Virus record (IMG/VR): IMGVR_UViG_3300018012_000099
Direction: 5' to 3' (one strand)
Origin: a virus
Lineage: Duplodnaviria > Caudoviricetes
Length of the DNA: 64,000 nucleotides
This document shows, piece by piece, positions 14,708 to 15,596 of this stretch. Position 1 is the stretch's first letter. Every line of letters begins with the position of its first letter. The notes beneath the pieces are model-generated. The model saw only the letters and a list, made by a program, of their open reading frames with translations. It made no database searches and was not told the DNA's origin. A program made the position numbers and the translations under genes.

Positions 14708-15259
14708 ATGCAACAGTGTCCCCAAACCGAAACGCAATCTGTTTATCAGCATGGTCTCTCTGTTAAAGAGCATATTTTCCAGGTGATTAGCTATCTGGAA
14801 ACTGGATACATCTCTGGTGCGTGGCGATTGCCCCAATGGCTTATTGAATATCGCACACAGATTCTTGATAAACTTCTCCCCAAAGAAATTATTGAAGAAT
14901 ACGCAATTTTTCATGATTGTGGAAAACCTTATTGCCTTATTTTTGATGAAAATGGGAAAAGGCATTTTCCTAATCATGCCGAAAAATCTTATCATACCTG
15001 GCTTTCTATTGGGGGTTCTGAACAAGCTGCAAAATTGATGAGAATGGATATGATGATTCATACAATAAAGTCTTCTAATATTGATGACTTTATTACGCAT
15101 CCTGAAGCGATTACTCTACTAATTGCCGGGCTGGCTGAAATTCACTCCAATGCCAAGATGTTCGGCGGAATCGAATCTGATTCTTTCAAAATTAAGTGGA
15201 ATCAAATTAACAAACGTGGTCATGCTATTTGTCAGAAATTATTCAAACAAGGAAACTAA
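14708..15259 (+). CDS. HD-domain phosphohydrolase-like protein
   Basis: 'HGLSV...FHDCGKP...FPNHA...MDM..H' HD-GK signature. Confidence 0.75.
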   Translation: MQQCPQTETQSVYQHGLSVKEHIFQVISYLETGYISGAWRLPQWLIEYRTQILDKLLPKEIIEEYAIFHDCGKPYCLIFDENGKRHFPNHAEKSYHTWLSIGGSEQAAKLMRMDMMIHTIKSSNIDDFITHPEAITLLIAGLAEIHSNAKMFGGIESDSFKIKWNQINKRGHAICQKLFKQGN

Positions 15260-15260
15260 T

Positions 15261-15596
15261 ATGTGTTTATAGAACGAAAAACTGTATATTATCGTAAGAA
15301 AAGATTTAACCCCAGGAGCTAAACTGGCACAATCAGTGCATGCTGCTTTTAGATTTGCGGATGAGTGGAGATATACTACTCAAAAATGGCTGGACAATTC
15401 CGAATACATTTGTATTTTGGAAATTGAGAATGAAAGTCAGCTAAAAGAATTATTACAACGAGCTCGGGAGCTTGATATTCCTAACTCTAGTTTTACTGAG
15501 CCTGACTTTAATAATTCATTAACTGCCATCGCTCTAGCGCCATGCCCAGAAAGTAAAAAACTTTGCAGTGCACTGCCGTTAGCCCTGAAAGAATAA
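15261..15596 (+). CDS. PTH2-like peptidyl-tRNA hydrolase with in-frame UAG at codon 4
   Basis: AAGGA RBS, then ATG TGT TTA TAG AAC GAA AAA CTG TAT. In frame (75 nt) with the track ORF at 15336. The PTH2-type N-terminus 'KLYIIVRKDL..G..LAQSVHAA' lies upstream of the track start. Confidence 0.8.

Follow-up and report, generated by a model that had tools for sequence, protein, structure and literature searches.

How is a phage gene expressed when its fourth codon is an amber stop? The question is raised by a PTH2-like gene in a 64,000-nt stretch (the window) of a large (giant) phage genome from wetland metagenomes. The window is ~37% G+C and carries nearly all of its genes on the plus strand, among them genes for a DNA polymerase, SbcCD, IF3, a Thg1-like enzyme, tRNAs and a tmRNA. 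A megablast search of 6 kb against GenBank phages gave zero matches, and scans for promoters and terminators gave fewer matches than in shuffled sequences. An earlier note, made from the sequence alone, had proposed programmed read-through of the stop rather than a pseudogene.

We found that the only well-placed translation start signals of the gene lie upstream of the amber codon. With that codon read through, the gene (15261..15596; features are on the plus strand unless stated otherwise) encodes 111 residues followed by TAA at 15594-15596. It opens ATG (15261-15263) TGT TTA TAG AAC GAA AAA CTG TAT ATT ATC GTA, as the earlier note had read it up to ATT, with the in-frame TAG (15270..15272), the amber gate, as codon 4. 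A Shine-Dalgarno-like (SD-like) AAGGA (15249..15253) lies 7 nt 5' of the ATG and is the sole motif of this kind suitably placed for any candidate start of the gene; there was none 5' of GTG 15336, ATT 15288 or CTG 15282. The gene immediately 5', which encodes a 183-aa protein, stops at TAA 15257-15259. The first canonical start 3' of the TAG is GTG 15336, and initiation there would remove strand beta1 (KLYIIVR) together with the conserved GAKLAQSVH segment and its Lys, Gln and His. The conserved N-terminal strand thus sits between the stop and the first downstream start, as had been claimed. The gene-caller product is 86 aa.

The read-through frame encodes a protein related to Pth2. The frame after the TAG matched Pfam PF01981 (PTH2) over residues 3-95 (profile positions 2-104 of 115) with a score of 43.5 bits (cut-off 23; E 4.1e-11). 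A profile of the phage clade matched the archaeal Pth2 chains 2zv3 (E 3e-11) and 1wn2 (E 3e-8), and aligned KLYIIVRKDL..GAKLAQSVHA to archaeal Pth2 from residue 2 onward. An AlphaFold2 model of the read-through protein (pLDDT 94.6, pTM 0.88) has disordered residues 1-6 and places beta1 at residues 7-13, and Foldseek comparisons of it gave TM scores of 0.75-0.81 against the Pth2/Bit1 structures 2zv3, 1wn2, 3erj, 1xty and 1q7s. As modeled, the protein folds like Pth2 (alpha/beta), and its N-terminal strand is part of the central sheet.

We take the catalytic residues of Sulfolobus Pth2 to be the Lys of GK..AQ..HA and the Asp and Thr of D-A-G-x-T. In the phage protein K21, Q24 and H27 are present and conserved. 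The stretch aligned to archaeal RDAGHT reads EPDFNN, and E80, D82 and T88 are invariant across the phage clade. Archaeal and eukaryotic Pth2 proteins (PF01981; 2zv3, 1wn2, 3erj, 1xty and human Bit1, 1q7s) have the same fold and length as the phage protein, and share with it the N-terminal strand and the K...Q..HA segment. In contrast, the cellular proteins have a DAG-x-T motif where the phage clade has EPD and a shorter loop. We infer that the phage protein hydrolyzes peptidyl-tRNA. Early stops are not known from cellular Pth2 genes.

We found that the TAG is present in other samples and in a diverged strain. The sequence ATG TGT TTA TAG was identical in three assemblies, each from a different sample, and the site was unchanged in Logan contigs of four further wetland runs, giving seven further samples that contain the TAG. 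One run (X8) contained a diverged variant with 14 differences over 169 bases, and this variant also kept the TAG. Ten of its 11 position-listed differences are at third codon positions of the frame that starts at ATG 15261, including those in codons 8, 9 and 12, all 5' of any canonical start. Because these third-position changes precede any canonical start, the stretch is translated in the ATG-15261 frame. From the TAG to the first canonical start, evolution of the codons is constrained at the level of the protein.

We found that an amber codon at this place is widespread in the family. We compared 29 viral and 80 metagenomic loci (relatives 29-79% identical; 104 distinct loci counted), each anchored on the K/R-L-Y strand, and called a gene gated if TAG was the first in-frame upstream stop and no ATG, GTG or TTG lay between the TAG and this strand. 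Fifty-two of the 104 loci were gated. In 50 of these the start was ATG, and 0-5 further codons preceded the TAG. Ordinary starts were found in 37 loci, and 13 were ambiguous. Most of the ambiguous loci were of the form M-TAG-Val(GTG) and were sisters of M-TAG-Val(GTA) loci; this GTG form occurs in ~11 loci, and the gated total is therefore 52 to ~63. In contrast, there were no TAA gates and only one TGA gate. Such a bias to TAG at one start-proximal place is far beyond chance. The gate TAG was confined to the first seven codons, and within gene bodies we found a single TAG in 11,383 codons. The start, the TAG and the domain share one frame in all 52 gated loci, as they do here.

The surroundings of the gate were also non-random. 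The residues before the TAG vary (MCL, MNS, MTPT, MS, MEP, MKKH and others) and the TAG stays. The base 3' of the gate TAG was A in 32 loci, G in 18, C in 2 and T in none. This is a purine in 50/52, compared to 57% in the background (p 1.7e-10, uncorrected and ignoring relatedness). The codon 5' of the TAG encoded Ser or Thr in 29/46. None of 65 gated genes ended in TAG, whereas 15 of 37 ungated genes did (Fisher p 5e-8, ignoring relatedness). Seventeen gated loci have merely 1-2 codons (e.g., AAC GAT or AAC GAA) from the TAG to the strand, none of them near-cognate to a start, and the codons right after the TAG (N-D/E-K-L-Y) vary synonymously. In a maximum-likelihood tree the gated state was found throughout the family, with at least 8 changes forced by well-supported branches, and gates were conserved down to 30% identity. 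Since the gated state is spread over the whole tree, the gate is old, recurrent, or both. The earlier note had named a private mutation or a sequencing error as findings that would overturn its proposal. The recurrence of the TAG in other samples and in homologs across the family contradicts both.

We found that a candidate suppressor tRNA gene adjoins the PTH2-like gene. ARAGORN identified a tRNA with a CUA anticodon at 15645..15716, 49 nt 3' of the gene, and its minimum-free-energy fold is a cloverleaf (-27.4 kcal/mol). A second tRNA-like gene with a CUA anticodon and an encoded CCA (17215..17288) was reported by ARAGORN only at the relaxed setting -ps80, and it also folds as a cloverleaf. 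Neither of these two CUA tRNAs was reported with the Rfam tRNA model. Pairs of CUA tRNAs were common among the relatives.

Gates and CUA tRNAs tended to occur together. Among loci with enough flanking sequence, a same-strand tRNA(CUA) lay within 800 nt downstream in 33 of the 60 that were gated or ambiguous, compared to 6 of the 33 ungated ones. The odds ratio for a tRNA(CUA) anywhere in the locus and a gate was 4.6 (Fisher p 0.0014, ignoring relatedness). A phylogenetically controlled version of this test had six independent pairs; it was underpowered and gave no significant association. In 21 gated loci with sufficient flanking sequence, ARAGORN did not detect a CUA tRNA. The PTH2 gate itself was TAG only in this set, and where the suppressor was tta or tca the PTH2 gene was ungated. 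In six loci (L048, L071, L057, L058, L075 and L017) the PTH2-like gene adjoins an ochre (tta) or opal (tca) suppressor tRNA; these genes have an ordinary start, and the matching stop is in a leader alone. Comparison of the CUA tRNAs with 133 typed phage tRNAs gave scattered weak best matches (Trp 11, Arg 11, Thr 7 and others), and we did not use it to assign an isotype. Gln stands at the TAG position in four deposited homologs (P0002, P0009, P0010 and P0023) as the product of a code-15 gene call. P0010 translates only with TAG=Q, and we therefore did not take this Gln as evidence for the inserted residue.

We found two more early amber codons 5' of the PTH2-like gene. A short leader, MKDYL-TAG-IKTRAPP-TAA (14188..14229; TAG at 14203-14205), lies 5' of a gene for a 131-aa protein of no assigned function (p131; 14282..14677). 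Ribosome arrest at RAPP and RGPP has been documented (PMC10951233, PMC12992588). On the gene strand, the loci contained 22 matches to the pattern M-x(0-8)-stop-x(1-16)-R[AGS]PP, compared to one on the reverse strands and 3.2 in shuffled sequences. The loci with this leader motif are the window, L006-L008, L030, L032, L034, L041, L057, L058, L063, L068, L071-L075, L081, L088 and L094. The type of stop in the leader followed the suppressor in the locus: TAG with a cta anticodon (14), TAA with tta (3/3) and TGA with tca (2), with one mismatch that is probably a chance match. The leader that the earlier note had cited for its CTG TAG A is thus conserved, and its stop tracks the local suppressor anticodon.

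The third early amber codon belongs to the gene for the 183-aa protein (14681..15259; phrog_14850, function unassigned), between p131 and the PTH2-like gene. An in-frame ATG CCC TAG (TAG 14687-14689) lies six codons 5' of its ATG at 14708. Homologs in L009 and L103 have ATG-xxx-TAG at an equal distance, and those in L055 and L038 have a sense N-terminal extension in which Trp is aligned to the TAG position. Trp as the inserted residue would depend on these two ungated homologs, which is too thin to use. There are thus three amber checkpoints within 1.1 kb, in the leader, the 183-aa gene and the PTH2-like gene, so that the second checkpoint proposed for this operon proved to be one of three.

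p131 is a conserved upstream neighbor of the PTH2-like gene. It usually precedes that gene, and by tblastn it lies directly 5' of it in ~20 loci. The family is widespread and unannotated, its members are 105-165 aa, and it has 2,874 cluster representatives at E <= 0.001 and the motif RHxLLAYAFLRGxPYxxxExKC. p131 had no match in Pfam, PHROG or the Atlas, and its model (pLDDT 88) matched nothing informative in the PDB or the AlphaFold DB clusters.

Other genes nearby are also related to translation. A phage tmRNA (13232..13585; Rfam RF00023, 89.9 bits, E 1.7e-34) lies in the same translation island (10641-18760), which includes a Thg1-like tRNA guanylyltransferase, tRNA-Thr genes and tRNA-Arg(CCU). 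The island also holds two HNH/endonuclease VII-like genes, NadA and a full IF3 (17832-18374), and IF3 homologs lie near the cassette in L002, L008, L032 and L033. Just before the island, at 10020-10046, a near-perfect palindrome, ATGCTAAA(A/C)(G/T)TTTAGCAT, separates two divergent genes, one on the minus strand at 8403-10019 and one on the plus strand at 10047-10625. Two apparent ATG...TAG gates at 10020-10046 are the two strands of this one palindrome, which is more likely an operator-type site.

We found that the rest of the window reads as standard code. Its ORFs are intact and dense under table 11, and TAG interrupts none of the long ORFs in the 64 kb. Reading TAG as sense gave a smaller gain in ORF length than did the TGA or TAA controls. 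TAG terminates just 1-2 of 82 long plus-strand ORFs. The one clear plus-strand gene-terminal TAG, at 24262-24264 (GAT TAG ATG), is in frame with the next gene, so its suppression would fuse the 124-aa and 127-aa products. The window contains replication and metabolic genes, and no late genes were recognizable in it, so TAG may be recoded more widely elsewhere in this phage. The frames for the large terminase (TerL) of three gated relatives contain no stops. A crude six-frame measure of ORF gain per locus was discarded, as spurious ORFs in GC-rich loci dominated it.

A complete 395-kb relative (G005, the record of L004) gave a similar picture. It has a gated PTH2-like gene, a tmRNA and one tRNA(CUA) ~39 kb from the gene. 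Coding density rose from 0.881 under the standard code to 0.892 when TAG was read as sense, a gain no better than that with the TGA or TAA controls, and 77 of 457 crude gene calls (~17%) terminate in TAG. Because this phage has a CUA tRNA and a gated gene yet many TAG terminators, suppression there must be weak, timed or costly; it cannot be both strong and constitutive. There was no genome-wide excess of early TAG gates in G005 (TAG 8/103, TGA 25/175, TAA 12/179), which indicates that the gate is gene-specific. As to the two hallmarks of genetic code 15, a phage-encoded tRNA(CUA) was found in the window (15645-15716 and 17215-17288). In contrast, TAG in many genes with fragmented standard-code ORFs was found neither in the window, outside which the late genes lie, nor in G005.

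Based on these results we suggest that TAG codon 4 is likely a conserved, selected read-through site, and that translation of the PTH2-like gene is licensed by a phage suppressor tRNA, a proposal built on comparison of sequences. The codon is real, its position is conserved, the gate is specific to TAG and has a biased context, the frame is translated, and gates are linked to CUA tRNAs. Which tRNA decodes the codon, which residue it inserts and what the coupling is used for we infer. Ribosomes would initiate at ATG 15261 by means of the AAGGA. The phage tRNA(CUA), whose gene lies 49 nt 3' of the PTH2-like gene and is probably co-transcribed with it, would decode the UAG and allow synthesis of the enzyme. 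If the suppressor were absent, release factor 1 would end translation with a tripeptide, which costs next to nothing. The amount of enzyme would then be proportional to suppressor activity, a feed-forward coupling. Since the gate is in the disordered N-terminal tail, the identity of the inserted residue need not matter. Our preferred guess for the use of this coupling is that the enzyme would recycle tRNAs lost as peptidyl-tRNA at paused, suppressed stops. Peptidyl-tRNA drop-off should increase with pausing at such stops and at the short arrest leader, and an extra hydrolase would then recycle tRNAs, the suppressor included. Alternatively, the coupling may serve to tune suppression or to provide feedback.

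Our results might also be explained in ways that do not involve a phage-licensed gate. The stop might simply be leaky, read weakly by near-cognate host tRNAs, which would keep the enzyme scarce and make the phage tRNA unnecessary. A purine 3' of UAG generally favors read-through, as known from context effects in E. coli, and the purine in 50/52 loci fits this reading, as do the 21 gated loci with no CUA tRNA in reach and the use of TAG as a stop in G005. However, a gate chosen for leakiness is expected to use UGA, the leakiest bacterial stop, and TAG alone is used; gated genes never end in TAG, CUA tRNAs are enriched beside them, and the leader stop in the same cassette follows the suppressor anticodon. 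We consider a leaky stop very unlikely. Re-initiation after a separate mini-ORF (ATG-x-x-TAG), or a start at a non-canonical or downstream codon, is highly unlikely. Start-stop elements and mini-ORFs are known to control bacterial genes, a GTG or ATG follows the TAG directly in ~11 loci, and the SD spacing in mycobacteriophages Bxz1 and Myrna suits that codon. On the other hand, re-initiation would accept any stop, and TAA was found 0 times and TGA once. The 52 gated loci have no ATG, GTG or TTG between the TAG and the strand, 17 of them have room for only 1-2 codons that are not near-cognate, and the post-TAG codons N-D/E-K-L-Y vary synonymously. In the AlphaFold2 model, a start inside beta1 would break the fold.

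If TAG were an ordinary sense codon (code 15) in part of the genome, it would have no special regulatory role here. A CUA tRNA is present, so few of the long plus-strand ORFs (1-2 of 82) end in TAG, and public gene callers translate some homologs with TAG=Q. Moreover, the window is without recognizable late genes, in which recoding usually concentrates (Borges et al., bioRxiv 10.1101/2021.08.26.457843). These observations contrast with the distribution of TAG within the family, in the first seven codons of 52 to ~63 genes and once in 11,383 body codons. TAG splits no long ORF of the window, stops are absent from the TerL frames of three gated relatives, and G005 uses TAG as a terminator and gains no more density than the controls. 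Recoding is thus very unlikely to account for the gate. A pseudogene or an assembly error would explain why the frame is interrupted under the standard code, and is the least credible reading, with hardly any probability. The TAG recurs in seven other samples; a diverged strain, which is under purifying selection, has it as well. It is conserved in the family to 30% identity, and the body of the gene is intact and has a confident predicted fold. The proposal of programmed read-through stands up well against a pseudogene: diverged homologs keep the TAG and differ in the flanking leader codons, the frame is constrained, and a tRNA(CUA) adjoins the gene.

A wider form of the suppressor-licensed gate is possible, and we put it forward tentatively. 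The whole cassette (the stop-plus-RAPP leader, p131, the 183-aa gene, the PTH2-like gene and the suppressor tRNAs) may be a suppression-sensing circuit in which early stops act as locks matched to a suppressor key and license several genes. The PTH2-like enzyme and p131 might then service or tune the suppressor, perhaps by recycling peptidyl-tRNA(CUA) or by balancing it against release factor 1. If so, phages that otherwise use the standard code would gain a self-contained, feedback-controlled code switch.

The motif is also found in cultured phages. In Tenacibaculum phage pT24 (L140; LC168164.1, 1156-2109), a cultured jumbo phage, ATG AAA TAG ATA shares its frame with a PTH2 domain, and the deposited CDS (BPT24_235) starts 45 codons 3' of that ATG, inside the domain. 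No tRNA was found within 1.2 kb of the pT24 gene. More than 200 Bxz1-like mycobacteriophages carry the motif. In Bxz1 and Myrna it reads ATG or GTG, TAG, GTG, and a tRNA(CUA) lies ~300 and ~130 nt farther 3', respectively. The SD spacing in these two phages is 1 nt to the first RTG and 7 nt to the GTG after the TAG. This spacing favors the downstream GTG, so some M-TAG-V cases may not need read-through. The presence of the motif in cultured phages makes the idea directly testable.

A gate of this kind would matter in several ways. Many standard-code phages have suppressor tRNAs without a known client, and a gated adjoining gene would be a concrete natural target. Stop-codon suppression would be usable as a single-codon translational gate, besides wholesale recoding. 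Gene callers truncate or mis-start gated genes, as in the 86-aa call here and the pT24 annotation.

The proposed gate resembles several known systems. Stop-codon recoding in phages has been proposed to be a post-transcriptional timer (Borges et al., bioRxiv 10.1101/2021.08.26.457843; Peters et al., PMC9523058). In code-15 phages (Lak, crAss-like and others; bioRxiv 10.1101/2021.08.26.457843, PMC9523058) a phage tRNA(CUA) decodes in-frame TAG and TAG is depleted as a stop; read-through is likewise proposed here. In those phages TAG is scattered through late genes, whereas the TAG here is a single codon (at positions 2-7) in one translation-related gene next to that for the tRNA, and the surrounding DNA is otherwise standard-code. 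The word "hydrolase" is absent from the preprint of Borges et al. (bioRxiv 10.1101/2021.08.26.457843), and full-text literature searches turned up no account of phage PTH2-like genes with an early stop next to suppressor tRNAs.

The prfB gene for release factor 2, with its early UGA, had been offered as an analogy. The likeness holds in that an early in-frame stop in a translation-factor gene acts as a sensor and output depends on decoding. The likeness is partial. Passage of the prfB stop takes a +1 frameshift, and the factor sensed is the prfB product, in a negative feedback. In contrast, the frame is unchanged here (one frame in all 52 gated loci) and the sensed factor would be a tRNA; any feedback by the enzyme on its own stop is putative.

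The bar minigenes of lambda, in which a stop follows an ORF of 2-6 codons, are a classic source of dropped-off peptidyl-tRNA, the substrate of Pth. Those minigenes are separate and toxic (related background in PMC10192219), whereas the mini-ORF of the phage shares its frame with the very gene for the hydrolase. By this analogy we speculate that drop-off from the mini-ORF may be functionally linked to the hydrolase. The arrest peptides ApdA and ApdP (PMC10951233, PMC7897499, PMC12992588) contain the RAPP/RGPP ribosome-stalling motif that also ends the cassette leader. However, the known peptides monitor protein export, and the cassette leaders are much shorter and carry the motif behind an in-frame stop that is matched to a suppressor tRNA. 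The design of the gate would also be a natural counterpart of engineered AND gates. In synthetic feed-forward circuits (Nucleic Acids Res. 2020, PMC7969014), amber codons tie expression to a co-expressed suppressor tRNA and give tight AND-type control. Those circuits were engineered, whereas the phage cassette would be such a circuit found in nature and conserved in evolution, and its tRNA gene lies 3' of the gated gene.
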